Below are positions 41,071 through 57,945 of a stretch of 64,000 nucleotides of DNA, in pieces. The DNA comes from Escherichia coli (lineage in GTDB: Bacteria > Pseudomonadota > Gammaproteobacteria > Enterobacterales > Enterobacteriaceae). The stretch lies in assembly GCF_016903815.1 (NCBI RefSeq), contig NZ_CP069973.1; one strand, 5' to 3'. The notes below the pieces were generated by a model. That model saw only the letters and a program-made list of their open reading frames with translations. It did not search any database and had not been told where the DNA came from. The stretch's first letter is position 1, and each line of letters opens with the position of its first letter. Both the position numbers and the translations under genes were made by a program.

Positions 41071-42117
41071 TTAACGTCCTGCTTTCAGCTTCTGATAATA
41101 CTCTTCATAAATGCTGCTGGCTGCGCCAACGTCATTCTGCCATTCACCATTTTTAATGGTTTCAGCATCCGGGTAGAGCGTTTTATCGTTCGCCACTTCC
41201 GGACTTAACAGCTTACGCGCCGCAAGGTTTGGCGTTGGATAACCGATAGTTTCTGCAACCTGTTTTGCCACATCCGGGCGCAGCAGGAAGTTGATCAATT
41301 TCAGCGCGCCTTCTTTGTTTTTGGCATTTGCCGGGATCGCCAGGCTGTCCATCCAGAAAATGCCGCCTTCTTTCGGCCACACCACATCAATTGGCGTACC
41401 CGCCTGGCGTGCAACGAAAGCAGAACCGTTCCAGATCATGCCGAGGTTAACTTCGCCTTCCATATACGGGTTAGCGGGGTTATCGGAGTTAAACGCCGCG
41501 ACGTTTGGCATCAGTTTTTTCAGCTCGTTGTATGCAGCTTCAATCTCTTTCGGATCGGTGGTGTTACCGGAGTAGCCCAGCTTACGCAGCGCCATCTGGA
41601 ACACTTCACGGGCATCGTCGGTCAGCAGCAGGCTGCCTTTGTACTCAGGTTTCCACAGATCGGCCCAGCTGGTAACGGATTTCGGATCCACCGCATCACC
41701 GTTAACGCCAATCGCCGTTGCACCCCAGATATACGGAATGGAATAGTCGTTATTCGGGTCAAACGGCTTGTTGAGCATGTCTGGATCGAGGTTGCTGAAA
41801 TTGCTTAACTTCGACTTGTCGATCTTCTGGATCATCCCTTCTTTACGCATTTTATCGACGTAATAGGTTGAAGGAACCACCAGGTCATAGGCACCGTCTT
41901 TGTACGTTTTCAGCTTCGCGTACATGGTTTCGTTCGACTCGTAAGTCGAATAGATAACCTTAATACCGGTTTCTTTGGTGAACTGTTCAAGCAGTCCTGG
42001 CGGCACGTACTCGGTCCAGTTGTAGAAATACAGCGTGTTGTTGTCATCGGCGTGAGCGGCGCTCATGCCCAGTGCCAGAGCACCCGCCGCGAGCAGGTGG
42101 CGTGACCATTTTTTCAT
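41071..42117 (-). CDS. potD: Spermidine/putrescine ABC transporter periplasmic binding protein
   Basis: 348-aa ORF with signal peptide. Confidence 0.93.
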   Translation of the reverse strand: MKKWSRHLLAAGALALGMSAAHADDNNTLYFYNWTEYVPPGLLEQFTKETGIKVIYSTYESNETMYAKLKTYKDGAYDLVVPSTYYVDKMRKEGMIQKIDKSKLSNFSNLDPDMLNKPFDPNNDYSIPYIWGATAIGVNGDAVDPKSVTSWADLWKPEYKGSLLLTDDAREVFQMALRKLGYSGNTTDPKEIEAAYNELKKLMPNVAAFNSDNPANPYMEGEVNLGMIWNGSAFVARQAGTPIDVVWPKEGGIFWMDSLAIPANAKNKEGALKLINFLLRPDVAKQVAETIGYPTPNLAARKLLSPEVANDKTLYPDAETIKNGEWQNDVGAASSIYEEYYQKLKAGR

Positions 42118-42908
42118 TTAACGTCCCCTGTGTTACCTTTCGTTTTATCACGAGCAATAAGCTGGCTGGCAATTACCATCACCAGCGACAGCACCAGTAA
42201 TATGGTTGCCAGCGCGTTAACTTCCGGCGATACGCCGACTTTGACCATCGAATAAATTTTTAACGGCAGAATTTCATAGCTTGGTCCGGTGACGAACGAA
42301 GAAACTACTACATCGTCCATCGACAGGGTAAAGCTTAACACCCAGCCCGCCGCTACCGCTGGCATTGCCAGTGGCAGAATGATTTTTCGCAGAATGGTAA
42401 ATTCGCTGGCACCGAGATCTTTCGCCGCTTCCAGCATTCGCACGTCAAAACCTTTCAGGCGCGAATACACCGTCACCACCACAAACGGCAGGCAGAAGGT
42501 GATATGCGAGAACAGCAGCGACCAGAAGCCAAGCTGAATACCCAGCAGCATAAACAGCACCAGCAGAGAAATCGCCATCACAATATCTGGCGACATCATC
42601 ACCACAAACAGCATTCCGCTAACGAACGGCTTACCGCGAAAGCGATAACGGTACAGCGCAACTGCAGTCAGTGAACCGATAAGCGTAGCAAACGTCGCTG
42701 AAAACACCGCCATCGTCAATGAATGCTGAGCTGCCTGCAACAGACTGTCGTTGTTCATCAGCAGGCTATACCATTTAGTGGTAAAACCCTGCCAGTTGAT
42801 GCCAAAGCGCGAGCTGTTGAACGAGTTCACAATCAAAATAATGATTGGAATATACAGGTACGCGTAGATAGCGGTCATAAAACCGCCGCGAAGCAGTCGA
42901 CCGATCAT
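42114..42908 (-). CDS. potC: Spermidine/putrescine ABC transporter permease
   Basis: 264-aa ORF; the upstream partner potB is not where expected. Confidence 0.93.
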   Translation of the reverse strand: MIGRLLRGGFMTAIYAYLYIPIIILIVNSFNSSRFGINWQGFTTKWYSLLMNNDSLLQAAQHSLTMAVFSATFATLIGSLTAVALYRYRFRGKPFVSGMLFVVMMSPDIVMAISLLVLFMLLGIQLGFWSLLFSHITFCLPFVVVTVYSRLKGFDVRMLEAAKDLGASEFTILRKIILPLAMPAVAAGWVLSFTLSMDDVVVSSFVTGPSYEILPLKIYSMVKVGVSPEVNALATILLVLSLVMVIASQLIARDKTKGNTGDVK

Positions 42909-43074
42909 TCGAGTTCCACCTTCTTATTCATAAGGTGGAGCACTTTCAGGATTTTGAATTTATTCAATTTTTTCCTTTCTCCAAAATCTCTCCAAAACGT
43001 TTCCCCAAAACTAGGCCACGCATTTTACAACACTTTTTTCCTGAGATGGTGACGGATATTCCATATGGTGTTTG
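42909..43074. other. Prophage left junction (attL-containing region) with a short potB-like 3' tail
   Basis: Only 166 bp separate the potC start from the integrase 3' end; minus strand has an ATG-less open frame of about 35 codons ending ...KVLHLMNKKVELE with TGA overlapping the potC ATG. Confidence 0.55.
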
Positions 43075-44193
43075 TCAAATAACCAACTTAACCCATTCCT
43101 GACCTCGAGTATCGTTATAGCGATCGGTGGTTGCCTGGACTTTATGTCCTAGTAATGTTTTTGTATCGATACCCTGTGCACGGTACAGCCGTTCTGATAG
43201 AGAGCGTTGTTCATGAAATGTTGGCGGAGTTTTTCCTGCTGGTGGAATTATCCCAGCCAGATCCCGTGCTTTGGCAAAGTAGTCGCTCAGGTTGTCTTTA
43301 CTCATCGGCTTCGGTTGTTTCTGGTGCCGACTATGGATTAGATATGGACTTAATATTCTGTCTCGGCACCCATCAATAACTTCTTTTAACGTTATCCCAA
43401 TGGCATCACAGCGTAGTGTAAGCGGTAACGCCAGACGCATTCCGGTTTTTCCCTGGGTGATATGCAAGTGTTCGTTCCACACATCTGAAAAACGCATGTG
43501 GCAAATGTCATCACGGCGCTGACCAGTAACAATCGCAAGAAGCATTGCGTTACGGATAAAGTGTTTTTCAGGCGTTGCATTGTAAATTTTTTGCCAGTCT
43601 TCCATGGTGAGCCTGGCTCTGGTTACTTTAGGGATCGGTTTACGGGTAGCCTCCGGAGGATTCCATCCAGGAGGAACTTCCCCTGCATGCTGTGCTTCTT
43701 TATAAATATCAACCCATAATCCACGATTTACTCTCGCTGTGCTGACCATGTCTTTATCCAGCCACTCATCCAGTATTAATGCAAAGTCTCTTACTTCCAG
43801 TTCTTTCAATGGGTGGTTTCCCAGACGGGAAACCAGGTATGCAGCCATTCGAGTTTTTTCTTTGTGAGTTGTAGCTGCAATATCTCCATTTTTCAGTCGC
43901 GTGTCCTGTATTTTCAGATATCGATCAACCCATGCCTTTAATCTGATACCCCGACGTTTTGTTGCTGACGGACTTTCATCAATTTTGCGCATGAAATATT
44001 CAGCTTCTGCTGCAGCTATTCGCTGATTGGCTGTGGAAGCGATTTTTTCTGCCTTACCTTTGTCTGTTCCGAGTCCGTGAAATTTTCCAGTCACAGGATT
44101 TTTATACTGGTAGTAAACTCTGCCAGTTCTGCGATCAAACTTTTCGTAAAGACCGGCTACGTCAGTGCTGTTTTTTCGTGGCCTCGGTGACAT
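43075..44193 (-). CDS. int: Lambda-family tyrosine integrase
   Basis: 372 aa; C-terminus HEQRSLSERLY...LGHKVQATTDRYNDTRGQEW matches the lambda Int catalytic R-H-R-Y region. Confidence 0.92.
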   Translation of the reverse strand: MSPRPRKNSTDVAGLYEKFDRRTGRVYYQYKNPVTGKFHGLGTDKGKAEKIASTANQRIAAAEAEYFMRKIDESPSATKRRGIRLKAWVDRYLKIQDTRLKNGDIAATTHKEKTRMAAYLVSRLGNHPLKELEVRDFALILDEWLDKDMVSTARVNRGLWVDIYKEAQHAGEVPPGWNPPEATRKPIPKVTRARLTMEDWQKIYNATPEKHFIRNAMLLAIVTGQRRDDICHMRFSDVWNEHLHITQGKTGMRLALPLTLRCDAIGITLKEVIDGCRDRILSPYLIHSRHQKQPKPMSKDNLSDYFAKARDLAGIIPPAGKTPPTFHEQRSLSERLYRAQGIDTKTLLGHKVQATTDRYNDTRGQEWVKLVI

Positions 44194-44428
44194 GAGTTAA
44201 AATCTCCTTCAGTGCATCATCATCGCCAGTATGAATTTCCGGCGCAATTCCCGTTTCACCAGGCCCAACAAATACTGCTCGGCGATCTATCAGCCAACGC
44301 CCACGAATTTTTTGTGGTCTTGGAACGATGTATCCTAGTTTTCCGTATTTCACCAGGGTAGTGTTTGTTATTGGGAGACTGAACCGTTTTGGTTTCCACT
44401 CGTCGAGCGTTATCAGGTACTGTTCGCT
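44162..44428 (-). CDS. xis: Excisionase
   Basis: Small ORF overlapping int start; lambda Xis-like pattern (LDEW...RW...P.P.K.GR.W). Confidence 0.7.
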   Translation of the reverse strand, partial: SEQYLITLDEWKPKRFSLPITNTTLVKYGKLGYIVPRPQKIRGRWLIDRRAVFVGPGETGIAPEIHTGDDDALKEILTHVTEATKKQH

Positions 44429-44492
44429 CATGGCTATCACTCCGGAACGCGCCAGTTGCAGAATATCAACGACAACTGGCGACGGTTGAACA

Positions 44493-46949
44493 TTAAAAAT
44501 CAGCCTGACTCGGGATCAGTTTTTGCCAGATAACTGAAACGTATTTTGCCTGGTAACGGGCGTCATCAAGTGCATTATGGCGCTCACCTTCGAATGGAAT
44601 AGCCGTTCTGGCATCGAAGTCTATGGCTTTCCCCAGCTCAACGATTGTGCGTACATCGCGATCGTTGTAGTAACGCCACGGGCAGGGGATCCCCTGCCGT
44701 TCGTATGAACGGCGCAAAATCGTGTTGTCGAAGTTGGCTCCATTTCCCCAGACCTGAACAAAAAATTCGCCGGAGTTTTCGTCGATAAATTCCCGCAATT
44801 GTAACAGTGCATCATCTAACGGGATTTCATCGGTCATAATGGCAGATTGCGCTTCGCGTGATTGCTTAAGCCACCATTTAATGGTGTCCCGATCAATGAC
44901 TCCGCCAGCAGTTTCCAGATCGATAGTCTTACTAAATTCCGGTCCCATATCTCCGGTTTGCGGATCGAAAAATATTGCACCTATTGAGATAATCGGGGCA
45001 TCTGGATTTTTTCCCATGGTTTCAAGGTCGATCATTAGATGGTCACACGTCCCGCTGGTGGATGTGCCTTTATGATGACCGTTCACCTTAACTGAGTGAT
45101 CTGTCGCCTCGCCAGTTTCACTATCGCTATCGTGATGCTGATTGCCGCCAGGGTTCTCCTTGTGTGGATGTTCAGTGCCTTCCATTTCCTCCGGATCATT
45201 TTCCTGAACTTCAACCTGATTCTCTTCATTGAATGTTTCCTGGTATGTTGCGTCGCCCATCACCGCGCCACAATCAGGGCAGTTGCCGCCGCCGGTCTGA
45301 CCGCAGGCGGTGCAGATCTTTTCCGGTTCCTGTTGCACTACTGGTTCAGGTTGTTTCGTTTCTGGCTCGTTTTGTAACGCATTTGGGCTGTTTTGTTCCG
45401 CTTTCTGGCCGTTCTGTTCCGTTTCTTGCTGGTTCTGGTTCACAGAATCGCGGGTTTCCATCCCCTTGACCCATTTCGGATCATTCGGGTCGCTAATCCC
45501 TGCAACAAATTCTCCGCGAGAGGCCGCAAGCAACTTATCGGCGTCAGGCTGGCTGATATTGGCTGCCTGCATAATTTTGTTTACTTCGTCAGCGGTAACT
45601 TTTACCTGATTAACCGGATCTATCTGTGCCTGAGTATCCAGCGATTGCGTGTCCTGGCGATGTTCAGTTGTATTCGGCTCCATTGCTTCAGTCGTTGCCT
45701 GTTCATCTGCCATTGCGTCAGACGGTTGTGATTTTTCCTCATTATTTTTTTCTTCTTCTGTTTCGCGTTCAGCAGCCAGTTCGCGGTTAACTTCTTCCAG
45801 GATATCTTTTTCCGGTGTATGTCGTGCAGCAGCGAGAGTTTCCTCGGTAGGGTTCTCGTGATCAGTTTCCGTCAAATAGGCGTTGATATACCCCTGAAGG
45901 CGTCCCGGGTAGTGATAAAATTCAGGGTGTGCGCTTCGGATAAGTGCAAAAATAGCGGCGCGGGAATAATCCAGGATACCCGGGATTGCGCGAAGTGCTG
46001 CGGACCATTCTTTGAACGGACTTTCTTTCTTCCGGACGACTTCTTTTGCGCGACGATAAACGCTGCCCGGAATTTCATAAATATTAAAATCCATCGGAAG
46101 TGTGGCCGCTGCAATCTCCACATCCAGCGTATCGAAGGTGTGTACTAAATTCGGATTGCGATCGGTTTTGTTCCCTCCACCGGCATTAGCACCGGAAGCC
46201 GTGCGGGTGATGCGTGAAACACGATTTCCTTTCATCCACTCTTTTGTCAGCAGACCGCGATCGGTGTAGTCAGCGCCCAGGTATGCTTCGAAAAAAGCAG
46301 TCATCAGTCCCAGGTCTGAATTACCAGGATTAGGGAAAACTTTGTCCGTGTCACGAACCAGTTTGTGGAGATCGCGAATTTCCAGCGGTTCGAGTTGCGC
46401 TGCTTTATTTGAGATGGCCAGCGCGGTAACGGCGGGAAGTTTTTCATCCTGTGCGTTATGTAATGTGCGCAGTTCGTCCCGCGAAACGTGTGTGATCGGT
46501 TTTTCGCTGCCGTGCTGTGCCAGCCATCGAACAGGCAGAATCTGACCTGAAACCGGCAGGAGCATGTTCTCCTCAATCTCAGCCATGTCTTCGCCGTTGA
46601 CGTTGGTATTGTCAGTGCTGGCTGGTTTATCCTGAACAGAGGGCGAGGGCGCGATAAGTACCATTGTGATACCATCTTCACCGCCCTTTTCGTATCGGTT
46701 GCAGAATTCGGTATCAAACACGCCTTCCGGAGGAAGGTCATTCACAACGGGTAAATGGACGCGAACAGGTTTTTTAAAATCCTCTTTGTCAAATCCGGCA
46801 TCGTCCATTGCGACAACACCGCGTGATATTGCAACCGATAATTTTTTTGCTGTGCGCCAGTAAAAACCGCCTTTAATTCCAAGACGTTTTCTGATTTTGT
46901 CATTTTTGGCTTCGTAATATAGTGCAATTTCTTCTTTATCAGTGCTCAT
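44493..46949 (-). CDS. Phage exonuclease with C-terminal DEDDh (DnaQ-like) 3'-5' exonuclease domain
   Basis: 818 aa; C-terminal motifs IDLETMG and HNALDDARY; long acidic low-complexity middle region; C-x2-C...C-x2-C zinc ribbon. Confidence 0.75.
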   Translation of the reverse strand: MSTDKEEIALYYEAKNDKIRKRLGIKGGFYWRTAKKLSVAISRGVVAMDDAGFDKEDFKKPVRVHLPVVNDLPPEGVFDTEFCNRYEKGGEDGITMVLIAPSPSVQDKPASTDNTNVNGEDMAEIEENMLLPVSGQILPVRWLAQHGSEKPITHVSRDELRTLHNAQDEKLPAVTALAISNKAAQLEPLEIRDLHKLVRDTDKVFPNPGNSDLGLMTAFFEAYLGADYTDRGLLTKEWMKGNRVSRITRTASGANAGGGNKTDRNPNLVHTFDTLDVEIAAATLPMDFNIYEIPGSVYRRAKEVVRKKESPFKEWSAALRAIPGILDYSRAAIFALIRSAHPEFYHYPGRLQGYINAYLTETDHENPTEETLAAARHTPEKDILEEVNRELAAERETEEEKNNEEKSQPSDAMADEQATTEAMEPNTTEHRQDTQSLDTQAQIDPVNQVKVTADEVNKIMQAANISQPDADKLLAASRGEFVAGISDPNDPKWVKGMETRDSVNQNQQETEQNGQKAEQNSPNALQNEPETKQPEPVVQQEPEKICTACGQTGGGNCPDCGAVMGDATYQETFNEENQVEVQENDPEEMEGTEHPHKENPGGNQHHDSDSETGEATDHSVKVNGHHKGTSTSGTCDHLMIDLETMGKNPDAPIISIGAIFFDPQTGDMGPEFSKTIDLETAGGVIDRDTIKWWLKQSREAQSAIMTDEIPLDDALLQLREFIDENSGEFFVQVWGNGANFDNTILRRSYERQGIPCPWRYYNDRDVRTIVELGKAIDFDARTAIPFEGERHNALDDARYQAKYVSVIWQKLIPSQADF

Positions 46950-47026
46950 TGATAAACCTCATTACAGATTTAAGGGTGAACAAATCCCTGCCATTGCTGG
47001 CATATAAAAATGAAACCGGATATTAA

Positions 47027-47236
47027 TTACGGTGCTGTTTTAAGCCCCGCCGGGATTTCGTTATTGTCCATGTGAATAACTTTATCGACCGGATAACAGT
47101 TGCCGGGAATTTTCTGTTCCGCTGCGGCAGCCATGCATTCTTTCATTGAGTTGTACATGCCGGTGATTGCATCAAGCGACTCACCAGTATTGAGATGTAC
47201 AGTCAGAATGAGTACGAATAATGTGTTCATCGCCAC
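47027..47236 (-). CDS. Small membrane protein, YdfD-like by position (putative host-killing/lysis protein)
   Basis: 69-aa ORF with N-terminal hydrophobic segment, immediately downstream of the DicB-like gene as ydfD is in Qin; identity not verified. Confidence 0.45.
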   Translation of the reverse strand: MAMNTLFVLILTVHLNTGESLDAITGMYNSMKECMAAAAEQKIPGNCYPVDKVIHMDNNEIPAGLKTAP

Positions 47237-47415
47237 TCTCCGAAAATACCGAGTTTAAGAAGGGCAATTCTGGAGAGTATGGAATTGTCATTCAGCAGGT
47301 AGGGTTCATATTTTCTCATATTGATTGCATCCTCGGTGAAATCCCTGTTACTGAGCAGAACACCAATATTAAAGCACCCGTCAGACGTATTAACGTTTGG
47401 TAGTGACGTTTCCAT
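47227..47415 (-). CDS. dicB: DicB-like cell-division inhibitor
   Basis: 62 aa; LPNVNTSDGCFNIGVLLSN..FTEDAIN.RK closely matches recalled E. coli DicB. Confidence 0.75.
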   Translation of the reverse strand: METSLPNVNTSDGCFNIGVLLSNRDFTEDAINMRKYEPYLLNDNSILSRIALLKLGIFGEWR

Positions 47416-47425
47416 TATCGCGTCC

Positions 47426-47983
47426 TCAACAATGAATTTTTAGCAATTGCTCCACAGTCATATTTTTAATTGCGCTCCGGTTTACAAGAGTCCATCCTTG
47501 TTTCTCCAGATAAAACCGGAAGGTATCCAGGGTGCAGACCATTGCGCCGTCAGGAACGGTTTCAGTGAATTTGATATTGCCGTGTTCGTCGAGACGGATA
47601 ACCAGGGTGCGTCCGTCCCCGTGAATCATTTTGTCGGGAGACGGGGCGTTATTCTGGCGCAGTTCTTCCTCCATGCGATCGAACTCAGCGATGTAGGCTT
47701 CTTTGAAAGTTGCGGCTTTTTTACCTGTGAACCCCATCACCAGGAAAACGAAGCCGTTTTTGGTGATTTGGTACATGGGGCGTTTTTCGCCTTTGGCGTC
47801 GGTGTAGGTAACGGGCGTAAAATTGCGCTCGTTAAAATCTTCAGAGCATTCTAGCGTTTCAATTTTGCGCAGAACGTCCTTGTGCATTTTGCGGAAGAAC
47901 TCTGCAACCGCAACAGACGTAGTGACAGCGCGACCATTTTCGATGGTTACGTCAGGGTGAGAAAGGGTAGGGATAGTAGCCAT
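47426..47983 (-). CDS. rha: Rha-family phage regulatory protein
   Basis: Start at internal ATG with RBS gagg (MATIPTLSHPDVTIENGRAVTTSVAVAEFFRKMHKDVLRKIE); the ORF-track 5' extension crosses a terminator-like hairpin. Confidence 0.7.
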   Translation of the reverse strand: MATIPTLSHPDVTIENGRAVTTSVAVAEFFRKMHKDVLRKIETLECSEDFNERNFTPVTYTDAKGEKRPMYQITKNGFVFLVMGFTGKKAATFKEAYIAEFDRMEEELRQNNAPSPDKMIHGDGRTLVIRLDEHGNIKFTETVPDGAMVCTLDTFRFYLEKQGWTLVNRSAIKNMTVEQLLKIHC

Positions 47984-48463
47984 AATGGCAGCCTCTTGGT
48001 TGAGTATTAATAACTCACCACCAAGGTTTTCCACGACCATAAGGGTGGTGAGGCGTACAGGGGTGGAAATACCGGTCAACCAAGAATCCGGCCAGCCTTG
48101 CAGCTGCCCTGCACGCCCCACCATAATCTGAATGTGGCTGTGCTTGACGCATAAAAAAACCGCCTGAGCGCGGTTATGCGCTTGATTGAATTCCGGGTTT
48201 CCACGCCCGGCACCCGTTTTATGAGGTGCAGGTGCACTATAATTCCACCCGTTCTGGTTTTCAATAGCTACATTCAACATTTTCTCTTACCTTTCATCAC
48301 CGAAGTGAACTTTGTTGATGCGGTGCCTGGTGCCTCCAGGTGACGTTAACCAGTTAACAATTAACGCCGGATACAGAGAATCCACCCATAACACTGTTTT
48401 TGGTTTTAACTGTTCCGCGTGCGCTTAGCCGCATTCACCGCATCACAAAATTCACTTTAAAAA

Positions 48464-48515
48464 GGGTGGCAGAGCAGTCACGGAGTAGAACTGATGCCAC
48501 CAAAGACTACACATG
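48464..48515 (-). ncRNA. dicF: DicF-like small RNA
   Basis: Minus-strand ggtggcatcagttctactccgtgactgctctgccaccc plus U-tail matches recalled DicF 3' two-thirds at about 34 of 38 nt; 5' end approximate. Confidence 0.6.
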
Positions 48516-48810
48516 GGTATTGTGGCGGGGCTGTCACTTAAGCGTATGGTCAACCTGACAACCCGGTGCATTTTCTGGAGCAATGGAGGAAACCCCAGCC
48601 ATACTTACCGCCGCGCCATTTCGCGGATTGCCACAACCGGAAGCGCACGATCGAATTAAATTTAACGACGACCTATACAGAGAGACTAACTTCGCCGGGC
48701 GCTTTCGTGTTATGCCCTGACTTTTCAGGGATATATCCTTTTTAGTAAACTGTCAGTGCCGGATTCTTATCCGTGTCCGGCGCACGCACTCTACCTCACC
48801 TGTGAATAAA

Positions 48811-49197
48811 TTAATGATTAATTGATATTTTGTTGTTTGATTCAACTTTCCCATCGGATGTGTGATGCTTTAAATCACAGGAATTAATACTGCTCGCTGT
48901 AAAATGATTTTCAAGGGGAGCTATTCGAATCCCTTTCTTTTTCATTAACAAGCCAAATCCTTTATTAATGATGTCCATTAATTCCAGGAAGTATTTTTCA
49001 TGTAAATCCTGGTTATCAGAGAGCTGCTTCTCTTCGTACAGACCGATAAAGGCACGACGCACGTTACCGGATATAGTATCGATGGTTTCTTTTTCTACGG
49101 TACTCAGGTCAAGAGTCGCCAGTTGAGAGCGAACCACATTCGATGCCATTTCCTGGAATGGTACTGGTAAATCTTTAAATTCCATCGTCAACCTCAT
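48811..49197 (-). CDS. Hypothetical protein, early-left operon
   Basis: 128-aa ORF whose start overlaps the stop of the upstream small gene; 3' half markedly AT-rich; no recognised motif. Confidence 0.55.
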   Translation of the reverse strand: MRLTMEFKDLPVPFQEMASNVVRSQLATLDLSTVEKETIDTISGNVRRAFIGLYEEKQLSDNQDLHEKYFLELMDIINKGFGLLMKKKGIRIAPLENHFTASSINSCDLKHHTSDGKVESNNKISINH

Positions 49198-49349
49198 CAG
49201 TCAGTGTTTCTGGTTAACCAGCGACGCGCGCCAGCTTCAGTTTGAAACGTTTTGCTTCTGGTATACGTCATCGCGGTAAACGTGCCGTCCTGGTTGGGAA
49301 ACACGCCGCATACCAGAGATTCGTTGTTGCCAAGATCGATAGTATCCAT
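49197..49349 (-). CDS. YdfA-like small protein
   Basis: Start placed at internal MDTIDLGNNESLV...TAMTYTRSKTF, which resembles recalled Qin YdfA; the ORF-track start at 49403 is also possible. Confidence 0.5.
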   Translation of the reverse strand: MDTIDLGNNESLVCGVFPNQDGTFTAMTYTRSKTFQTEAGARRWLTRNTD

Positions 49350-49403
49350 GCTGACCTCATTTCCCCTTAACGCCAGGGTAGCGGAACTGTTTGCTGAGAA
49401 CAC

Positions 49404-49555
49404 CGTGCGGTGTCTTGATGAGTAGAATTTAGAATAACCTAAGAATTATGGTCAAGCTTTTTGTGTAGAAAAACCTAAGTTTTTTGATGTAAAAAACACA
49501 AGCATTTGAAAGTTTGTGCTTTTTATTACAGAGAGTGGCGAAAAAAAAGGGAGGT
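49404..49555 (-). promoter_or_regulatory. Early-left promoter/operator region (PdicB analogue)
   Basis: 152-bp AT-rich gap with repeated aacctaag and ttgatg/ttgtgtag motifs. Confidence 0.4.
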
Positions 49556-49963
49556 TTATTTATTTGCGCTTCTTTTGCGAGCTTTGAGTAGTTCTTCAAA
49601 AAGTTTGTTGAAATTCTCAACTCGAGCACGCATCTCTGACAACAGAGCCTTTTGCTCTGACTCAGGCAGTGCGTCGAACAGTTGAAGCAACTCTTTTTGA
49701 TCTTCTGTCAGATTAACTGGCTGATTATCTGGGATCGGTTCGCCTGGTTGCTTATCTTCATCTCCAAAAAGAAGCCAAGTCGGCGAGCACTGAAGCGCCT
49801 GGCTCAGTGCGAATAATCTCTTCCCCGCTGGCTGTGTTTCATCTCTTTCCCATTGAGAAATTGTTACGTGAGCCACTTTGACCAGCTTACCTAATGCGGC
49901 CTGAGACAGTTTTAATTTTTTACGCCTGTATAAGAGGCGAGCACCGAAGGTTTCGTTTTTCAT
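49556..49963 (-). CDS. dicA: DicA-type HTH (XRE) prophage repressor
   Basis: 135 aa; LSQAALGKLVKVAHVTISQWERDETQPAGKRLFALSQALQCSPTWLLFGDEDKQP and MRARVENFNKLFEELLKARKR closely match recalled DicA. Confidence 0.85.
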   Translation of the reverse strand: MKNETFGARLLYRRKKLKLSQAALGKLVKVAHVTISQWERDETQPAGKRLFALSQALQCSPTWLLFGDEDKQPGEPIPDNQPVNLTEDQKELLQLFDALPESEQKALLSEMRARVENFNKLFEELLKARKRSANK

Positions 49964-50039
49964 ATTAGGTAATTCTAATTTTTCTTGACTTAGGTTTCTC
50001 TACGATCTAGTTTCCTTAGGAAAATCTAAGGAGTTCGAT
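49964..50039. promoter_or_regulatory. Divergent repressor/cro promoter-operator region
   Basis: 76-bp gap with repeated cttagg/cctaag half-sites (acttaggtttc, ccttaggaaaatctaagg). Confidence 0.5.
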
Positions 50040-50267
50040 ATGTTGAAAATTGATGCTATAGCGTTTTTTGGCAGCAAAACAAAGCTTGCCAATGCCGCAG
50101 GAGTTAGGCTGGCAAGCGTTGCTGCATGGGGGAAACTGGTTCCTGAAGGTCGCGCGATGCGTCTACAGGAGGCATCCGGCGGGGAACTTCAGTACGACCC
50201 CAAAGTTTATGACGAATATCGTAAGGCAAAGCGGGCGGGGCGGTTGAACAATGAAAATCACCCCTGA
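50040..50267 (+). CDS. dicC: Cro-like regulator (DicC/YdaS family)
   Basis: 75 aa; FGSKTKLANAAGVRLASV...LVPEGRAMRLQEASGGELQYDPKVYDEY matches YdaS/DicC. Confidence 0.8.
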   Translation: MLKIDAIAFFGSKTKLANAAGVRLASVAAWGKLVPEGRAMRLQEASGGELQYDPKVYDEYRKAKRAGRLNNENHP

Positions 50268-50802
50268 ACAGGTTTGTGAGGCTCTGGATGCCTGGGTATG
50301 TCGACCAGGAATGACACAGGAGCAAGCGACGATATTAATCACGGAAGCATTCTGGGCTCTGAAAGAACGCCCGAACATCGATGTTCAACGCGTCACGTTT
50401 AATGATGGCGAGGTTGATCAACGGGCGCTGGGCGTTAACCGGGTGAAGATATTCGAACGCTGGAAAGCTATCGACACCAGGGATAAGCGGAAAAAATTCA
50501 CGGCGCTGATTCCGGCAATTATGGAGGCTATCCGAATTAGTGATTTCAGGTTGTATCGTGAGATCAGTGATGGAAAAAGCATTACGTACATGATCGCCGG
50601 ATTAAACAAAGAATATGGCGATGTGGTGGAGTCCGGGCTGCTTTTTGCGGATCCAGCTGTTGTGGAACGTGAGACTGACGAGCTTATAGAAAAAGCTATT
50701 GCTTTCAAGCATGCGTATCGTCAGCAATATCAATATTACTTTGCAGATAAACAAATGTCTGCCAGGGGTTTGTATGAGTATCGATGCACTACGATGGGCT
50801 AA
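50251..50802 (+). CDS. YdaT-like protein (CII-position regulator/toxin family)
   Basis: 183 aa; KFTALIPAIMEAIRISDFRL resembles recalled YdaT; position after cro analogue. Confidence 0.6.
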   Translation: MKITPEQVCEALDAWVCRPGMTQEQATILITEAFWALKERPNIDVQRVTFNDGEVDQRALGVNRVKIFERWKAIDTRDKRKKFTALIPAIMEAIRISDFRLYREISDGKSITYMIAGLNKEYGDVVESGLLFADPAVVERETDELIEKAIAFKHAYRQQYQYYFADKQMSARGLYEYRCTTMG

Positions 50803-51814
50803 AAAGGTGAAAACCGGCAGTTCATCCAGTAAGTCTGTATTGACCTGGCTTGCTGATATGTGCGGTGCCGATTTGTGTGCATACCCGTCTGTATCTGCAC
50901 TGGCAGAAGTAACGGAACTGAACAAAAAGACTGTGCAGGACAGCTTACGACACCTGATGGAGATTGGGTTAATTGTTGATACCGGTGAGAGAAAAGGCAG
51001 AACAAAGCAAATTGTGGTGTACCGACTTATCGGTGTAGAAGAAAGTGTTGCCGAGCCTGAATACACCCAAAAACGGGAGTCTTTAAAGGTGGGTAAAATT
51101 GGTGCTGTTAATAAAAACAGTACCGAAAATGGTTATGTTTCAGCACAAAACAGACCCAAAAACGGAACTCTTAGCTGCATGGAAAATAACCAAAGACACC
51201 CAAATTTTCCATCAAAGACACCCAAAAACGGATCACGGAACCCAAAGGAACCCAAAGATCTAAACCCCACACATAACGCACGCGAGAGTGCTCCGACCAG
51301 TGAGCAGGAAGTTTTGTCGTTACAGGCAGCACCCCTTGTATTCCTGGATGGCCTGAGCGAACCCATCGGAAAATTTCCGATGACCGATAGCTGGTATCCG
51401 TCACGGGATTTTCGACGACGGGCTGCGTTGTGGGGGATGGCTTTGCCGGAGACAGAATTTACACCTGCTGAACTTGCCGCCTTCCGGGACTACTGGGCAG
51501 CGGAGGGGAAAGTGTTTACGCAGATTCAGTGGGAGCAGAAATTCGCCCGTCACGTAAATCACGTCAGGGCGCAGGTTAAACCAGTCAGCAAGGGGGTAAA
51601 CCATGCAGCAGCACCAGGTGGCACCGCATCACGGGCAGTTCAGGAAATTCGGGCAGCACGTGAGCAGTGGGAACGTGAAAACGGATTTATCAGCGACGGA
51701 AACGGTCTGGAAGCTGTGGGAACTCATGGGGGAGGTTTATTCGAACCGCTGGACCCAGAAGAACGGGGCCGCACCTTCGAAGCTCTGGATTGCACAGATT
51801 GGCGCGATGACTGA
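50774..51814 (+). CDS. Replication initiation protein (O-like; N-terminal HTH, DnaT-like C-terminal region)
   Basis: Start at ATG 50774 (MSIDALRWAKKV) with RBS; C-terminal YWAAEGKVFTQIQWEQKFARHVN resembles DnaT-type domain. Confidence 0.6.
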   Translation: MSIDALRWAKKVKTGSSSSKSVLTWLADMCGADLCAYPSVSALAEVTELNKKTVQDSLRHLMEIGLIVDTGERKGRTKQIVVYRLIGVEESVAEPEYTQKRESLKVGKIGAVNKNSTENGYVSAQNRPKNGTLSCMENNQRHPNFPSKTPKNGSRNPKEPKDLNPTHNARESAPTSEQEVLSLQAAPLVFLDGLSEPIGKFPMTDSWYPSRDFRRRAALWGMALPETEFTPAELAAFRDYWAAEGKVFTQIQWEQKFARHVNHVRAQVKPVSKGVNHAAAPGGTASRAVQEIRAAREQWERENGFISDGNGLEAVGTHGGGLFEPLDPEERGRTFEALDCTDWRDD

Positions 51815-52268
51815 GCAGCAAATCCGACAGGTCTGCCGCCAGTGCATGGACCGCTGCCGGGCGGGTGAAACATGGCCTCCGGACCTGGCTGAGTTTGTGG
51901 CGCTGATTTCAGAAAGCGGGGCCAATCCATTTGGCCTGACGGTGGATGCTGTGATGGAGGAGTACCGCCGCTGGCGTGATGAGTCCTGGCGATATGACGG
52001 AAGCGACAAATATCCGTGGCCTCAGCCTGTGCTGTACCACATCTGCCTCGAAATGCGTACCAGAGGGATTGAGCGCCAGATGACGCAGGGTGAGTTAAAA
52101 CGACTTGCAGAACGGCAACTGACGAAATGGGCAAAGCATGTTGGTAACGGGATGAGTGTTCCGCCAGTGCGACGACAACTGGAAGGGGCGAAACACCCGC
52201 AAGGGCCAACGCCAATTGAACGGCTGAAACAGGAATACGAACGCCGGAAGGCAGCTGGTTTTATTTGA
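51603..52268 (+). CDS. Lambda P-like replication protein (helicase loader family)
   Basis: LPPDLAEFVALI...VMEEYRRWRDESWRYDGSDKYPWP parallels lambda P (LPNVSELVDMVYEYCRKRGLYPDAESYPWK); start ambiguous because of the 212-nt overlap with the O-like gene. Confidence 0.55.
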   Translation: MQQHQVAPHHGQFRKFGQHVSSGNVKTDLSATETVWKLWELMGEVYSNRWTQKNGAAPSKLWIAQIGAMTEQQIRQVCRQCMDRCRAGETWPPDLAEFVALISESGANPFGLTVDAVMEEYRRWRDESWRYDGSDKYPWPQPVLYHICLEMRTRGIERQMTQGELKRLAERQLTKWAKHVGNGMSVPPVRRQLEGAKHPQGPTPIERLKQEYERRKAAGFI

Positions 52269-52283
52269 ATCTGAGAAACGATT

Positions 52284-53072
52284 TTGTCGGAGGAAATTTT
52301 AATGGAAACCGTATTTGACGCACTGAAAGCAATGGGAAAAGCCACATCGGTAGAACTGGCCGCGCGACTTGATATCAGTCGTGAAGAGGTTCTCAACGAG
52401 CTGTGGGAACTCAAAAGAAATGGCGTCGTTGATAAAACTGGTCACACCTGGTTTCTGGCTGGCGAAGGTGAATCCCGGGTAACCGAAGAGCGGCCAGTAA
52501 AATCTGAAGCACAGGATATGCTGACCGGGGAGGTCGAACAAAAAGTTACCGCAGACATGATGATTGAGTTTATCGGTCAGGATGGTGCTAAAACGTGTGA
52601 GGAACTGGCGGGTAAGTTCGGCGTCAGTACTCGCAAGGTTGCCTCCACGCTGGCGGTGGTAACCGCAACGGGGCGGCTGGCACGCGTTAATCAGAACGGT
52701 AAATTTCGTTACTGCATGCCGGGCGATAATTTACCAGCAGAGCCGAAAGCCGCGCTGGTAACGGAAAGTGATGGTAAGGCCTTTCCTCAGCCAGCAGGTG
52801 CTGCGTTACCAGTCCGGGAAGCCGCAACACAGGAAGAAATTAAAACAGAAACTGTGGCGGACATTGTGCAGCCGTTGCCATCGTTTACCGAAACGCAAGC
52901 AGATGAGCTGATTTTTCCGTCCCTTCGCAGGGCAAACCTGGCGCTGCGCAGGGCGAAAAGTGATGTTCAGAAGTGGGAGCGAGTCTGCGCCGCGCTGCGG
53001 GAGCTGAACAAGCACCGGGATATTGTTCGACAGATTAGTGATTCTTCCCGCCGTGTTGTATCGGAAAAGTGA
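52284..53072 (+). CDS. Hypothetical phage protein with two winged-helix-like segments
   Basis: 262-aa ORF; repeated [15 protein letters not shown] and [19 protein letters not shown]-like segments. Confidence 0.5.
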
Positions 53073-53087
53073 TTGCCGGAGGCGCTT

Positions 53088-53480
53088 ATGGCAAAAGTAT
53101 TTACACCAGAAGAGCGGGAAGAAGTGAAGGCGCGCATTGTGGAATTCGTGCGCCTGAGCGGACGAGAAACTTTTCGACAACTGGCAGATAAAACGGGTGT
53201 CAGTAAGACCGCTATTCGTCGTTTATCTGGTGCGCTTGCGGCCAGTGGTGATGTCTGGCTCTCTGGTTGCGGGGTATTTCCATCAGAGCAGGCGTATCGC
53301 GTATGGCGTAAGACACCGGAGAAGGCTGCTGACCCGACACTGATTCGAAAGTTACCTGACGGAGAAATACGTCGTTACAACAGACGGCAGAACATAATTT
53401 GTCGTGAGTGCCGCCAGAGCGAAGTCATGCAGCGTGTGCTGGCGTTCTATCGGGGAAACTTTCAGGAGGTGATGGAGTGA
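53088..53480 (+). CDS. Hypothetical HTH protein
   Basis: ATG 53088 preceded by ggagg; FRQLADKTGVSKTAIRRL HTH-like. Confidence 0.5.
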   Translation: MAKVFTPEEREEVKARIVEFVRLSGRETFRQLADKTGVSKTAIRRLSGALAASGDVWLSGCGVFPSEQAYRVWRKTPEKAADPTLIRKLPDGEIRRYNRRQNIICRECRQSEVMQRVLAFYRGNFQEVME

Positions 53481-53482
53481 GG

Positions 53483-53773
53483 GTGAGAGTTTATATTGCC
53501 GGTCCAATGACGGGATATGAAAATTTCAACCGTGAGGCGTTTCACAAGGCGGAAGAGGAACTGAAACGGGAAGGGCATACCGTCTTAAACCCGGCAGTAC
53601 TTCCGGACGGGCTGACACAGCCGCACTACATGGATATTTGCATGGCAATGATTCGTTGTGTGGATGCGATTTACATGCTGAATGGCTGGCAGCGGTCAGC
53701 GGGCGCTAAGGCAGAGCTGGCACTGGCGGAGAAACTGGGGCATGCGGTGATTTATCAGGAGGTGGCTCAATGA
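53483..53773 (+). CDS. DUF4406-like (nucleoside 2-deoxyribosyltransferase-like) protein
   Basis: GTG start after ggag; VRVYIAGPMTGYENFN...DAIYMLNGWQRSAGAKAELALA pattern. Confidence 0.55.
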   Translation: MRVYIAGPMTGYENFNREAFHKAEEELKREGHTVLNPAVLPDGLTQPHYMDICMAMIRCVDAIYMLNGWQRSAGAKAELALAEKLGHAVIYQEVAQ

Positions 53774-54231
53774 GAGAGGTTAACTATGAGGCGCTTCGTG
53801 AGGCAGCACAAAACTATCAGTCGACGCTGGCGTGGTATCAGGCTATCCCGGACAGCCCAAATGCTGAACGGGATTGTGATGCGGCTCTTGCTGCGTTTAA
53901 GCGTCACATCCGTCATCGGGAAGCGGATATTATCGCTGATTTGCTGGATGGACTGGAAGAAGCAAAATCACAACTCAACGAGCAGCGTGAGTATTACGAA
54001 GGCGTTATCTCTGATGGGAGTAAGCGTATTGCTGAACTGGAAGCGCGGGAAGTTCAATTACCGACTCGCTACGACCTTCGATATGGACACCCGATAAATG
54101 CAGATGAGCGACATGTCATGATACCTAAAGAAAATGGCAGTTGGCTTTACCTGATTGACCTAGAACACGCATTACGCGTCGCTGGCATTCGCATCAAAGG
54201 AGAGGAGCATGGAAATAAAACCAGAGGATGA
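53770..54231 (+). CDS. Hypothetical phage protein
   Basis: 153-aa ORF, overlapping stop/start with neighbours. Confidence 0.45.
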   Translation: MREVNYEALREAAQNYQSTLAWYQAIPDSPNAERDCDAALAAFKRHIRHREADIIADLLDGLEEAKSQLNEQREYYEGVISDGSKRIAELEAREVQLPTRYDLRYGHPINADERHVMIPKENGSWLYLIDLEHALRVAGIRIKGEEHGNKTRG

Positions 54232-54565
54232 GTTAAGCAATATCGTTTTATTTCCGGTAAAAGAGGATGACCCTCGTAATCAGGTTAATTTTCTTTATGA
54301 GTCATCGGAAAGACCATATTGTCATCACGCCTCTGTTCGGGTTGACGAAAAAGAGCGTCAGGTCCGCTGTAAAATCTGCGGTGCAGTTGTGGAGCCGTTT
54401 GACTGGATGCTCTCTGTGGCGAAAAGAGAAACCAGACTGGCAGATGATGTAAGGCTATTGCGCCAGGAGGAACAGGAAAGGCGGAAAAATATAGAAAAGT
54501 TAATTCAGATTGAGCGTAACGCGAAAGCGCGGATATGCAGGGCGACAAAATCCAGAACTGAATAA
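54209..54565 (+). CDS. Hypothetical zinc-ribbon-like protein
   Basis: 118-aa ORF with CHH...CKICG pattern. Confidence 0.4.
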   Translation: MEIKPEDELSNIVLFPVKEDDPRNQVNFLYESSERPYCHHASVRVDEKERQVRCKICGAVVEPFDWMLSVAKRETRLADDVRLLRQEEQERRKNIEKLIQIERNAKARICRATKSRTE

Positions 54566-54660
54566 TTAAATTTAGCACTGTTAAAAATTTTATCCTTAAC
54601 CGGAGGGATTTCTGCACCCTCAGAACATCAGGAGGCCGCCCGAAAGGGCGGTAATGAAAA

Positions 54661-55068
54661 ATGACTGAATTAACAAAAGAGCAATTAATCGAAGAAGCCA
54701 AATTAAAAATAGCGATTGCGAAATGCCACACGAATTCAGGGATGGCACGGGTAGAGGGTGAGTTATTCAAAATTGCACTGGCATCGCTAGAAGCGGAACC
54801 GATAGCGTGGAAATGCGGCGAAAACATAATCCTGTTTAATCCTGACACAGTTGAAGCATACGCAAAACGTGCGGAGATATCACCTAAACCACTATTCGCA
54901 GCTCCACCTGTGCCGGTTGTGTCTGAAGGACTGGTTAAAGCCGTGCGCTTCTATGAAAAGGTTAAGCGTGAAAATCCGCCAGTCGAAACCGGAGCATGGA
55001 AAGACGCTGTTGACTGGGTGCTCAAAGAGGCCTGCCAGGTTGTAAACACTGGCATCAAAGGAGACTGA
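54661..55068 (+). CDS. Hypothetical phage protein (shares N-terminal module with the 328-aa protein)
   Basis: 135-aa ORF; AAPPVPVVSE linker motif. Confidence 0.5.
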   Translation: MTELTKEQLIEEAKLKIAIAKCHTNSGMARVEGELFKIALASLEAEPIAWKCGENIILFNPDTVEAYAKRAEISPKPLFAAPPVPVVSEGLVKAVRFYEKVKRENPPVETGAWKDAVDWVLKEACQVVNTGIKGD

Positions 55069-55069
55069 T

Positions 55070-55435
55070 ATGGCACTGACGAAAAAACAACGTGCAGAAT
55101 TGCGCATGAAGTTTGGCGGTCGCTGTGCTTATTGCGGCTGTGAACTTGGCGAAAAGTGGCATGCAGACCATGTAAAACCGGTCATTCGTTTTAATGGAAA
55201 TATGCTTCACCAGGAACGTGACGATATATCCAACATGGTTCCGGCATGCCACCCATGCAATCTGCACAAGCATTGCAGTAGCCTGGAAGACTATCGGCGA
55301 ATTATCAGTGATGGTCGTCGTGAATTCCTTGCGTCCGGGAAAGGCAAAGCGCTGGTTCGTATGGGATTGGTTGAAATGAAATCTGACCCGGTTGTGTTCT
55401 GGTTTGAAAAATATCAAGAAGGGGCTACAGCATGA
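55070..55435 (+). CDS. HNH endonuclease
   Basis: 121 aa; CAYCGC...HADHVKP...N...CHPCNLHKH HNH motif. Confidence 0.8.
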   Translation: MALTKKQRAELRMKFGGRCAYCGCELGEKWHADHVKPVIRFNGNMLHQERDDISNMVPACHPCNLHKHCSSLEDYRRIISDGRREFLASGKGKALVRMGLVEMKSDPVVFWFEKYQEGATA

Positions 55436-56418
55436 CCACTATTACCAATAAGAAACAGTATCCCAGCGAGCAATATCTTAATGAGCTTATCACCAACATA
55501 GAGTTTGCTGCAAGGGCACCAGTTGAAGTCGTGAGCGCAATGGCAGCAGAGCTACAGAAGCGGCGCGAAGCTGATAGCGCAGAACCAGTTGCTTATATTT
55601 TCAAACATCCGGCCGGGAAATTATTCTGGGCTTTAACGGATGAAAGCAATAAAGAGCAAGCGGACGTTATTCCTGTTTATGCCGCCCCTCCAGTGCCAGT
55701 AGTATCTGAAGAAAAACCAATGCCTAACCCTCTTAAAATGTACGCGGTCGATGATGTTGCCGCTATTGCAGAGGTGAGAGGCTGGAATGCCTACCGCGCC
55801 GCCATGCTTCAGAGTCAGGGGGAAGGCAACCCTCATGTAACCCCGGCTCGCCTGCCTGGTGGTTTCACCATTGAGGATGCGAAGGTGTTACATGAAGACC
55901 TTGTACGTAGCCACATAAGCCAGGCTTTAAGTGGCGAAAAGATGAAAAAGAAAGATCGCGATGCTGATTTGCGCTGGATTCATGGCGTAATAGTTCAGGC
56001 CGCGTGGTTTGTAAAGGCATCACTGGAGCAGAATGCACTATCGGGCAACTCTCCGGTAATTCCTGGTGAGGTGTTGTCCGCAATCCGGGAGGTTGCCAGG
56101 ATTCGCGCCGATTTCGATGATTTTGACGGTGACAGGCGAGGTATCGGTGATTGTCTGGATGAGGCCGAGCAAGAGCTTATCGTTACCATTAACAAATATG
56201 CCAGTCAGTTGGCAGTAGAGCCGGTAGTACCTGATGACGTTCTGGAACAGACAGTAGCGTCGCCAGCGCTAGGTAACCAGGTTAGCGAATTAACAATGTG
56301 GGTTAAACGACTGGTCAGTCAACTGAAAAAAGCTCAGCCGGACTGCAAATTACCGGAGAAGGCGATGGATTACCTGAAACGAAATGGACTGATAAGCGTG
56401 GAGGATGTTTTACGATGA
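55432..56418 (+). CDS. Hypothetical phage protein
   Basis: 328-aa ORF; AAPPVPVVSE motif after an N-terminal module paralogous to 54661-55068. Confidence 0.5.
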   Translation: MTTITNKKQYPSEQYLNELITNIEFAARAPVEVVSAMAAELQKRREADSAEPVAYIFKHPAGKLFWALTDESNKEQADVIPVYAAPPVPVVSEEKPMPNPLKMYAVDDVAAIAEVRGWNAYRAAMLQSQGEGNPHVTPARLPGGFTIEDAKVLHEDLVRSHISQALSGEKMKKKDRDADLRWIHGVIVQAAWFVKASLEQNALSGNSPVIPGEVLSAIREVARIRADFDDFDGDRRGIGDCLDEAEQELIVTINKYASQLAVEPVVPDDVLEQTVASPALGNQVSELTMWVKRLVSQLKKAQPDCKLPEKAMDYLKRNGLISVEDVLR

Positions 56419-56538
56419 ATATTTAGACTAAAGAGTTTGTAACGCTATGTAAGTGATTTTTTCTGGTTTAGATATTTATATGTCCGGCCAAATTGAGGTG
56501 TGTTTAAATGTTATTGCACATTGATTGTAGGGGGAATA

Positions 56539-56718
56539 ATGAAAAACGCATTGCAGTTTTTGTTTGTTGCGTTCTGGTTGTTCGCATCATGTATGCCCAT
56601 CATCTTCACAGCAAGGTATATGGAAAAAATTGATGTTTTGATATTAATGTTTGGACATATAAATGCCCTTTTTTTAGGGGTGTTCATGGCGGTCATGTGC
56701 ATTGAATACTGGCGGTAA
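56539..56718 (+). CDS. Putative small membrane protein
   Basis: 59 aa from ATG 56539 with RBS aggggg; two hydrophobic segments; AT-rich context. Confidence 0.3.
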   Translation: MKNALQFLFVAFWLFASCMPIIFTARYMEKIDVLILMFGHINALFLGVFMAVMCIEYWR

Positions 56719-56799
56719 ATACAGCGAACGCCATTGGTTTAGTTGGATATTTACTGTGCCGGACAAAAACGGTTTGCGGGGAAATCTTAGTTAAGTAGA

Positions 56800-56976
56800 A
56801 TAACTGCGGGTGCTTGAGGCTATCTGTCTCAGGCATGAACACCAAAAGGCAGATAGAGAAAAGCCCCAGTTAACATTACGCGTCCTGCAAGACGCTTAAC
56901 ATTAATCTGAGGCCATATCTATGCGACACATAGAGATTAGCCTCTTACGGACCGAAAGGTCAAGGAGAAGCAGGCT
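56800..56976. promoter_or_regulatory. hok mRNA leader with mok-like upstream ORF and expected antisense Sok region
   Basis: 19-codon upstream ORF (ATG 56921) whose TGA overlaps the hok ATG; hairpin gcgtcctgcaagacgc; Sok position inferred, not observed. Confidence 0.35.
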
Positions 56977-57132
56977 ATGAAGCAGCAAAAGGCGATGTTA
57001 ATCGCCCTGATCGTCATCTGTTTAACCGTCATAGTGACGGCACTGGTAACGAGGAAAGACCTCTGCGAGGTACGAATCCGAACCGGCCAGACGGAGGTCG
57101 CTGTCTTCACAGCTTACGAACCTGAGGAGTAA
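56977..57132 (+). CDS. hok: Hok/Gef-family type I toxin
   Basis: Hand translation MKQQKAMLIALIVICLTVIVTALVTRKDLCEVRIRTGQTEVAVFTAYEPEE (51 aa), essentially the HokD/RelF sequence as recalled. Confidence 0.85.
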   Translation: MKQQKAMLIALIVICLTVIVTALVTRKDLCEVRIRTGQTEVAVFTAYEPEE

Positions 57133-57200
57133 GAGACCAGGCGAGGGAGAAATCCCTCGCCACCTCTGATGTGGCAGGCATCCTCAACGCACCCGCACTT

Positions 57201-57229
57201 AACCCGCTTCGGCGGGTTTTTGTTTTTAT
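57201..57229 (+). terminator. Rho-independent terminator after hok
   Basis: aacccgcttcggcgggtttttgtttttat. Confidence 0.75.
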
Positions 57230-57348
57230 TTTCAACGCATTTGAAGTTCTGGACGGTGCCGGAATAGAATCAAAAATACTTAAGTAGCGCGCAGGGATAA
57301 GAGGGATGGTCCCTTAAAGGGGAGAGCTAATTATCCGGAAGGATTCTG

Positions 57349-57600
57349 ATGATGAACATCGAAGAACTGCGTAAAATTTTTTGTGAAGATGGCCTCTATG
57401 CTGTGTGCGTTGAAAATGGAAATATTGTTAGCCATTACCGCATTGTGTGTTTGCAAAAAAATGGGGCTGCGTTAATTAATTTTGTGGATGCCCGAGTGAC
57501 GGACGGATTTATCTTGCACGACGGTGAGTTTGTCACTTCATTACAGGCATTGAAAGAGATCGGAATAAAAGCTGGCTTTTCTGCTTTTTCAGAAGAATAA
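57349..57600 (+). CDS. Hypothetical phage protein
   Basis: 83-aa ORF. Confidence 0.4.
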   Translation: MMNIEELRKIFCEDGLYAVCVENGNIVSHYRIVCLQKNGAALINFVDARVTDGFILHDGEFVTSLQALKEIGIKAGFSAFSEE

Positions 57601-57666
57601 ACTCATCTACAATCTTGCGCGGGGCTGAACTCCCGCTGAGTAACACCGTGCCACCGGAGAAAACCG

Positions 57667-57945
57667 ATGGCACGCAACGCAAAATATTACAATCATGATA
57701 ATTCGACCGTTCTTGCCCACACGCACGAGCGGTATTCTCATGCATTTAAGTCAGACTGGTACCAGCATCCCCCATGCACTGAAGAACAGGCCGAGTGGCT
57801 AATTCAGTGCTACCGCAGACACGGATACGAGATTAAGAAAGCCCTCAGCCTCGATTATCGTCACTGGATAATCTCCGTCAGGCTCCCTTACTCCGAACGG
57901 CCACCGCGTCCGTCCCGCACATTCCAGCAACGCATCTGGAGGTAA
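57667..57945 (+). CDS. Hypothetical phage protein
   Basis: 92-aa ORF abutting the DUF968 gene. Confidence 0.4.
   Translation: MARNAKYYNHDNSTVLAHTHERYSHAFKSDWYQHPPCTEEQAEWLIQCYRRHGYEIKKALSLDYRHWIISVRLPYSERPPRPSRTFQQRIWR

Follow-up and report, generated by a model that had tools for sequence, protein, structure and literature searches.

The DNA that we analysed is a single 64,000-nt stretch of Escherichia coli sequence, referred to throughout as the window, in which potD and potC are separated by 166 bp from a lambda-type integrase gene and the prophage that follows it. The genes of the locus are:

41071–42117, minus strand: potD, encoding the spermidine/putrescine-binding protein, read as an open reading frame downstream of potC
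42114–42908, minus strand: potC, intact, 264 amino acids, from its open reading frame and protein comparison
43075–44193, minus strand: the integrase gene (int), 372 amino acids, a full-length homologue of lambda Int by phmmer, Pfam and PHROGs
44162–44431, minus strand: the excisionase gene (xis), overlapping the start of int, by PHROGs and by the annotated excisionase of strain 7/2
44493–64000: the rest of the prophage, running off the end of the window, from its match to the strain 7/2 prophage

The PotC protein is identical to that of K-12 strain C600, the 22 nucleotide differences between the two genes all being synonymous, and WP_000580316.1 is the PotC annotated in K-12 C600 as well as in five lysogens or remnant carriers; PotD differs from C600 PotD by one amino acid. 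The gap between potC and the stop codon of the integrase gene measures exactly 166 bp (42909–43074). An initial annotation, made from the sequence alone, had described 166 bp between an intact potC and the 3′ end of a lambda-type integrase, and both the protein identity and the coordinates of the open reading frames bear this out.

Further into the prophage, the interval 44493–64000 holds genes for an exonuclease, dicB, repressor/cro, replication, Q and lysis. The gene annotated as an exonuclease (44493–46949, minus strand) encodes 818 amino acids, much longer than a plain exonuclease domain, and has a long acidic, Q/E/N-rich middle part with a cysteine motif ahead of a C-terminal nuclease-like region. 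On the other side of the locus, strain 7/2 carries a copy of IS200C between ymfA and potD (733–1191 of extracted segment L002) that the window does not have, so that the two represent different strains in spite of their 99.99% identical prophages.

Alignment of the window with the uninterrupted operon of K-12 C600 showed perfect identity up to position 42930 and none beyond it, placing the end of potB homology at a single base. The initial annotation had proposed that a lambdoid prophage sits at the potB/potC boundary and had suggested this alignment as a check; the abrupt stop at 42930, together with a core sequence found at both prophage ends (below), supports the proposal. The features of the interval, named here as parts of the attachment site that we take it to be, are:

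42905–42930, minus strand: native potB 3′ end left at attL, identical to C600 as far as 42930 and followed by unrelated sequence
42917–42930: common att core CACCTTCTTATTCA (14 bp), from a three-way alignment of attL, attB and attR
42924–42930: probable 7-bp overlap (strand-exchange) region TTATTCA, from the core layout and a polymorphism
42932–42937: putative C′ core-type Int half-site AAGGTG, an inverted repeat of CACCTT at 42917–42922
42931–43074: phage P′ arm of attL, from the core to the int stop codon, without homology to the uninterrupted operon
42976–43010, plus strand: three tandem candidate arm-type Int sites, TTTCTCCAAAA (42976), TCTCTCCAAAA (42987) and TTTCCCCAAAA (43000)

K-12 PotB has the C-terminus YWRASRLLNKKVELE, ending SRLLNKKVELE before the stop codon, and the segment 42905–42930 corresponds to two bases of a Leu codon, the codons for NKKVELE and a TGA that overlaps the potC ATG; it also retains the native Shine-Dalgarno-like sequence of potC, AAGGTGG, upstream of the potC start. 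On the minus strand, an open frame runs from a TAA (43025–43027) through NAWPSFGETFWRDFGERKKLNKFKILKVLHLMNKKVELE to this same TGA (42905–42907), its 3′ end reading KVLHLMNKKVELE and stop. The frame had been noted before as a TAA-bounded, ATG-less tail of about 35 codons whose TGA lies over the potC ATG; the boundaries hold, but it comprises 39 codons and is not strictly ATG-less, with an in-frame ATG at 42929–42931 and in-frame TTG and GTG codons.

The potB-derived share of this frame consists of the last seven codons and the stop (NKKVELE), the other 32 codons being phage P′ arm. A blastp comparison of the 39 residues with PotB aligned the last 8–9 residues and nothing more. These results bear on the suggestion that the tail is a phage-borne surrogate potB 3′ end that completes potB at this site, as in icd/e14. 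The last residues of the frame are indeed those of the PotB C-terminus, its TGA overlaps the potC ATG as in the native operon, and the phage does possess a surrogate end, although at its other junction. Upstream of the frame, however, there is only the TAA and then the int stop codon, so that the tail is joined to no potB body; its nine PotB-like residues are a native remnant, the remainder is P′ arm containing the arm-type repeats, and the body of potB lies 48 kb away at attR, by which this explanation is already refuted and which leaves it scarcely credible.

The length of the frame is also within chance, since shuffling the phage-derived 144 nt gave frames at least this long in 8.2% of cases. 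In the free-phage version, the frame continues through the core and ends in SELDD and stop. The 39-codon frame is a by-product of the junction and not a gene end, and annotations of lysogens should treat the open frame ahead of potC as neither a potB fragment nor a pseudogene.

The junction also creates a shorter frame: the core/P′ joint converts the potB Leu codon CTG to ATG, giving an 8-codon mini-frame, MNKKVELE (42905–42931, minus strand), whose stop overlaps the potC start. Either this mini-frame or the whole tail might be translated as a leader peptide that keeps potC translationally coupled, for which the preserved ATGA stop/start overlap, the in-frame ATG at 42929–42931 and the open state of the frame in all five attL variants examined would speak. 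That the frame stays open in every variant can equally be attributed to conservation of the underlying DNA with its arm sites, and of the differences between variants, most alter the encoded residue (for example W to R, S to C, T to K and LH to SR). We saw no Shine-Dalgarno-like sequence on reading the DNA ahead of the 42929–42931 ATG, whereas potC keeps its own AAGGTGG, and with about one shuffle in twelve (8%) yielding a frame as long and no annotation pipeline calling the tail frame, we consider a translated leader highly unlikely. RefSeq annotates no gene in the 166-bp tail among the genomes listed, and an Rfam search returned no family match, its one hit being at chance level and inside int.

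The junction 23-mer occurs only once in the 64-kb window, even with up to three mismatches tolerated, which places attR outside the window. We therefore read attR from genomes that are 100% or 99.99% identical to the window over the shared part, so that the sequences given here are those of the relatives and not the window's own. Positions 42678–64000 are 99.991% identical to the prophage of strain 7/2, and over 36000–60000 (24 kb) the window and strain 2779 show 100% identity. The strain 7/2 element is a complete lambdoid prophage with int, xis, exo, dicB, repressor/cro, replication, Q, lysis, terminase, head, tail and tail-fibre genes, followed by potB and potA.

At this far junction, the potB gene of strain 7/2 is 864 nt long (287 amino acids), compared with 858 nt (285 amino acids) in K-12, and its product is identical to K-12 PotB for 282 residues before ending in KKVSELDD instead of KKVELE. 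Strain 2779 encodes the same protein at its far junction (WP_000799406.1). The phage P arm supplies about eight PotB codons, five of them new, exchanging the terminal ELE for SELDD; beyond the 14-bp core, the phage-derived and native ends bear only a loose resemblance to each other (GAATTAGATGATTAA versus GAACTCGAATGA). A replacement potB end is thus carried by the phage, as the initial annotation had surmised, but it lies at attR and not in the 166-bp tail. The same annotation had named the other junction with its direct repeat as something to look for, and in both strains CACCTTCTTATTCA is present at the far end beside potB; it had also held that an intact potB adjacent to the locus with no duplicated core would argue against the proposal, and what we found is a potB that is essentially whole at the far junction, but with the core duplicated. 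For the genome from which the window comes, the far junction is expected to read TAATTCGCT-CACCTTCTTATTCA-GCAAGCGAG, with potB ending in SELDD and stop. By the same comparison, the prophage would be roughly 48.5 kb in size, with attR predicted about 48.45 kb to the right of 42917.

The absence of potB from the window might by itself suggest a junction produced by deletion or by homologous recombination that removed potB, and not by site-specific integration. This absence applies only within the window: potB and potA lie at the far end of the prophage beside the same 14-bp block, which already refutes a loss of potB, and the identical junction in 1395 genomes and the recovery of attP (below) reduce the likelihood of this origin to practically nil.

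Three attR variants were found, in which PotB ends in KKVSELDD, ATEIDN or SDIDN; the 864-nt potB was read for the SELDD and ATEIDN forms. We observed that the P arms of potB-site prophages are widely diverged (attR of O157:H7 RIMD 0509939, MB06234 and strain 272), while the surrogate PotB ends that follow the shared KK are all five residues long, acidic and of one pattern (SELDD; TEIDN, preceded by A; SDIDN), resembling the native ELE in their shortness and acidity. In the O157-type attR, the block of identity with attB shrinks to 12 bp. The O157-type prophage of strain 272 has nleL, espN and espK just inside attR (2920–11929 of extracted segment L015), a position occupied by tail-fibre genes and a methyltransferase in the prophage type of the window. 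The 287-amino-acid PotB variants ending in SELDD, ATEIDN or SDIDN should be regarded as signatures of integration and not as natural alleles.

The core itself was located from these junctions. CACCTTCTTATTCA is common to attL, attR, attB and attP; exact copies occur at both prophage ends of strain 7/2 (positions 240 and 48694 of extracted segment L003, a spacing of 48,454 bp), at attR of strain 2779 and once in C600, and uninterrupted genomes match an attR probe from exactly the first base of the core. The expectation that the att core would lie inside the tail proved correct, since it occupies 42917–42930. Within potB, the core spans the codons for L-N-K-K-V. In attP, the layout is CACCTT-C-TTATTCA-T-AAGGTG, that is 6+1+7+1+6, with the inverted hexamers nine bases apart, and the probable overlap sits 17–23 nt upstream of the potB stop codon.

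A polymorphism within the core provides information on the position of strand exchange. The base at 42923 (core position 7) is C in the window and in K-12 and is C/T polymorphic, both alleles being synonymous in potB (AAG/AAA). Strain 272 carries T at the corresponding base of its attL but C at that of its attR; the T allele also occurs in attL of OkiPb01697 and in many uninterrupted attB sites, for example that of ATCC 8739. We had considered a crossover to the left of 42923 on the basis of this polymorphism, a placement that was dropped in view of the T allele at uninterrupted attB sites. On the assumption that attB had the T allele in the ancestor of strain 272, the T in attL is bacterial and the C in attR is phage-derived, placing the exchange to the right of 42923 and within TTATTCA. 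From this argument and from the layout, we infer that the crossover occurs within TTATTCA (42924–42930), between the CACCTT and AAGGTG half-sites. At base resolution, this gives the att core of a very common E. coli prophage family together with its probable crossover.

The P′ arm contains further sequence features that would fit an integrase-dependent attachment site. The motif TYTCYCCAAAA has three matches on both strands of the 64-kb window, against 0.20 expected, all of them in the P′ arm, and none of 100 shuffles reached three matches. The P arm has a fourth copy, across the core at a distance of about 125 bp. Six diverged attL or attP sequences show no variation in the three repeats, although two of these sequences differ entirely beyond about 129 bp, and the P-arm copy is kept in the three attR variants, which are otherwise widely different. 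Three tandem copies beside int with another in the opposite arm correspond to the lambda layout, and we take the TYTCYCCAAAA repeats to be probable arm-type sites for Int.

The integrase has the corresponding domains. In a phmmer comparison, it matched lambda Int (PDB 1z1b) with an E-value of 4e-54 over residues 26–371, and Pfam assigned PF09003 (Arm-DNA-bind_1) to residues 1–64 (E 7e-21) and Phage_integrase (E 4e-18). Alignment to lambda Int shows R (in VTGQRRDD), K (GKTGMR), H and R (FHEQRS), H (LLGHK) and Y (DRYND) at the positions of R, K, H, R, H and Y that we take to be the catalytic residues of lambda Int. PHROGs classified the two proteins as an integrase and, for Xis, as phrog_629 excisionase (E 5e-26); NCBIfam gave no match for Int or Xis.

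A predicted attP was obtained by fusing the phage arms of the two junctions, attR and attL. An exact 29-mer over both predicted joints matched two IMG/VR contigs, 2681813264_000005 and 2529292834_000010, both of which align to the predicted attP over about 500 bp with a few substitutions and have the P′ arm contiguous with the P arm. Their gene order (tail fibre, tail-fibre assembly, methyltransferase, attP, int, xis, exo) is the vegetative one. These contigs may derive from excised phage or from tandem lysogens, and the P-O-P′ junction is real in either case. The attP-form junction lies mid-contig in both, and the identifiers look like those of isolate genomes, which would imply excised circles or tandem copies of this phage in the cultures concerned. 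In a GenBank phage collection, the reconstructed attP found half-matches only and no free attP; two of these half-matches that we checked are prophage-derived records that include host flanks.

We also observed a 13-bp GC-rich inverted repeat with a 4-nt loop, CCTCCCCGACCAT/ATAGTCGGGGAGG, on the P-arm side of attP, some 190 bp past the core as viewed from int (4883–4912 of the IMG/VR contig in segment L006, with the same sequence at 48480–48512 of strain 7/2 in segment L003). It is beyond attP relative to int, at roughly the place where lambda has sib/tI, and after integration it is separated from int and comes to lie at attR.

The junction is widespread in the species. Of 5426 complete E. coli genomes, 5424 gave a match to a 601-bp junction probe. 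The match covered the whole probe in 1395 genomes, with potC adjoining the integrase gene; in genomes with an uninterrupted operon, the match stops at 42930, and potC and potB are annotated under it. The P′ arm is present in 1634 of the 5426 genomes (nearly full in 1418), and the junction occurs in about 26–30% of complete E. coli genomes. Neither the attR junction nor the core/P′ junction had an exact match in a set of contigs representing one genome per species. A partial class of about 216 genomes may represent integrase-less remnants or a different island that uses the same site. In E. coli E600003 and OkiPb01697, which belong to this class (301–430 of extracted segments L010 and L011), the core, the P′ arm and the three arm-type repeats adjoin potC, but the sequences diverge completely after about 121–129 bp, no integrase follows, and the next genes encode a hypothetical protein and an AAA ATPase on the other strand.

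Taken together, these data make it very probable (roughly 0.93) that the 166 bp are the attL (B-O-P′) of a lambdoid prophage of about 48.5 kb, which Int inserted site-specifically within the last codons of potB. In the mechanism that we propose, Int would exchange strands within the 7-bp TTATTCA between the inverted CACCTT and AAGGTG half-sites, as in lambda. The native potB end, with NKKVELE, the TGA/ATG overlap and the potC ribosome-binding site, stays with potC at attL, while the body of potB, together with potA and the operon promoter, is moved to attR, where the P arm supplies the final codons.

In this arrangement, potCD are separated by the prophage from potA-potB and their promoter and lie directly downstream of int on the same strand. 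A scan of the interval between int and potC for promoters and terminators found no promoter-like site facing potC and no terminator. Judged from the sequence, transcription of potCD in the lysogen probably depends on read-through from the int region. The three diverged attP variants all fit a five-residue pattern, [ST]-[ED]-[LI]-D-[DN], and we considered whether the phage-encoded PotB tail might be under selection and potCD prophage-dependent, in the manner of a regulatory-switch type of lysogeny. We regard this as an unlikely extension of the data; if it were true, spermidine uptake in roughly a quarter of E. coli strains would depend on the state of the prophage.

Prophages at this site are known from several lineages. 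PhipotB of CFT073 is a 44-kb prophage at potB (PMC3573123, Table 1), PP_potB of O157:H7 clade 8 is variable and frequently lost or regained (PMC9997748), potB-site prophages have been published for O145:H28 (PMC7067040), and a 'prophage 5 (potC)' was described in outbreak O157:H7 (PMC10925052). A review lists potC as an insertion site of Stx phages (PMC8065619), citing Steyert et al. 2012, the main text of which contains no mention of potC or potB. In the literature searched, we found no paper that prints the core sequence in the context of a potB/potC prophage, the hits for it having titles on unrelated topics. The window shares its attL and integrase type with the O157-like strain 272, with 97.6% identity over the 166 bp, whereas the O157-type prophage differs in having espK, espN and nleL next to attR and in a PotB that ends in ATEIDN.

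Compared with insertions into icd, the window shares the position near the 3′ end of a coding gene and a phage arm that completes the reading frame with its own last codons and stop, so that the gene remains whole; such repair by a phage arm is the known pattern at gene 3′ ends. Prophages e14 and 21 in icd, however, reportedly bring a long phage-borne duplicate of the gene 3′ end, as related in Campbell's reviews; at potB, the phage supplies about eight codons and not a long homologous duplicate, the surrogate lies at attR, far from int and outside the 166 bp, and the insertion splits an operon between two translationally coupled genes.

The system also resembles that of lambda. The prophage has a full-length Int with arm-binding and catalytic domains, an xis that overlaps int and an int beside the P′ arm, and its candidate arm-type repeats stand three in tandem in P′, with one or more in P; lambda itself has three tandem arm-type sites next to int and further copies in the other arm. 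The 6+1+7+1+6 core with CACCTT/AAGGTG resembles the lambda core, CAGCTT-T-TTTATAC-T-AAGTTG, in its CAGCTT/AAGTTG half-sites. The system differs from lambda in that the target lies inside a gene, potB, and not between gal and bio, and in the sequences of the core and arm sites. The feature is real but ordinary, at a site that is already published and with a mechanism that is classical lambda; the detail of the core sequence belongs to this known system and not to a new one, and its import extends little beyond annotation.
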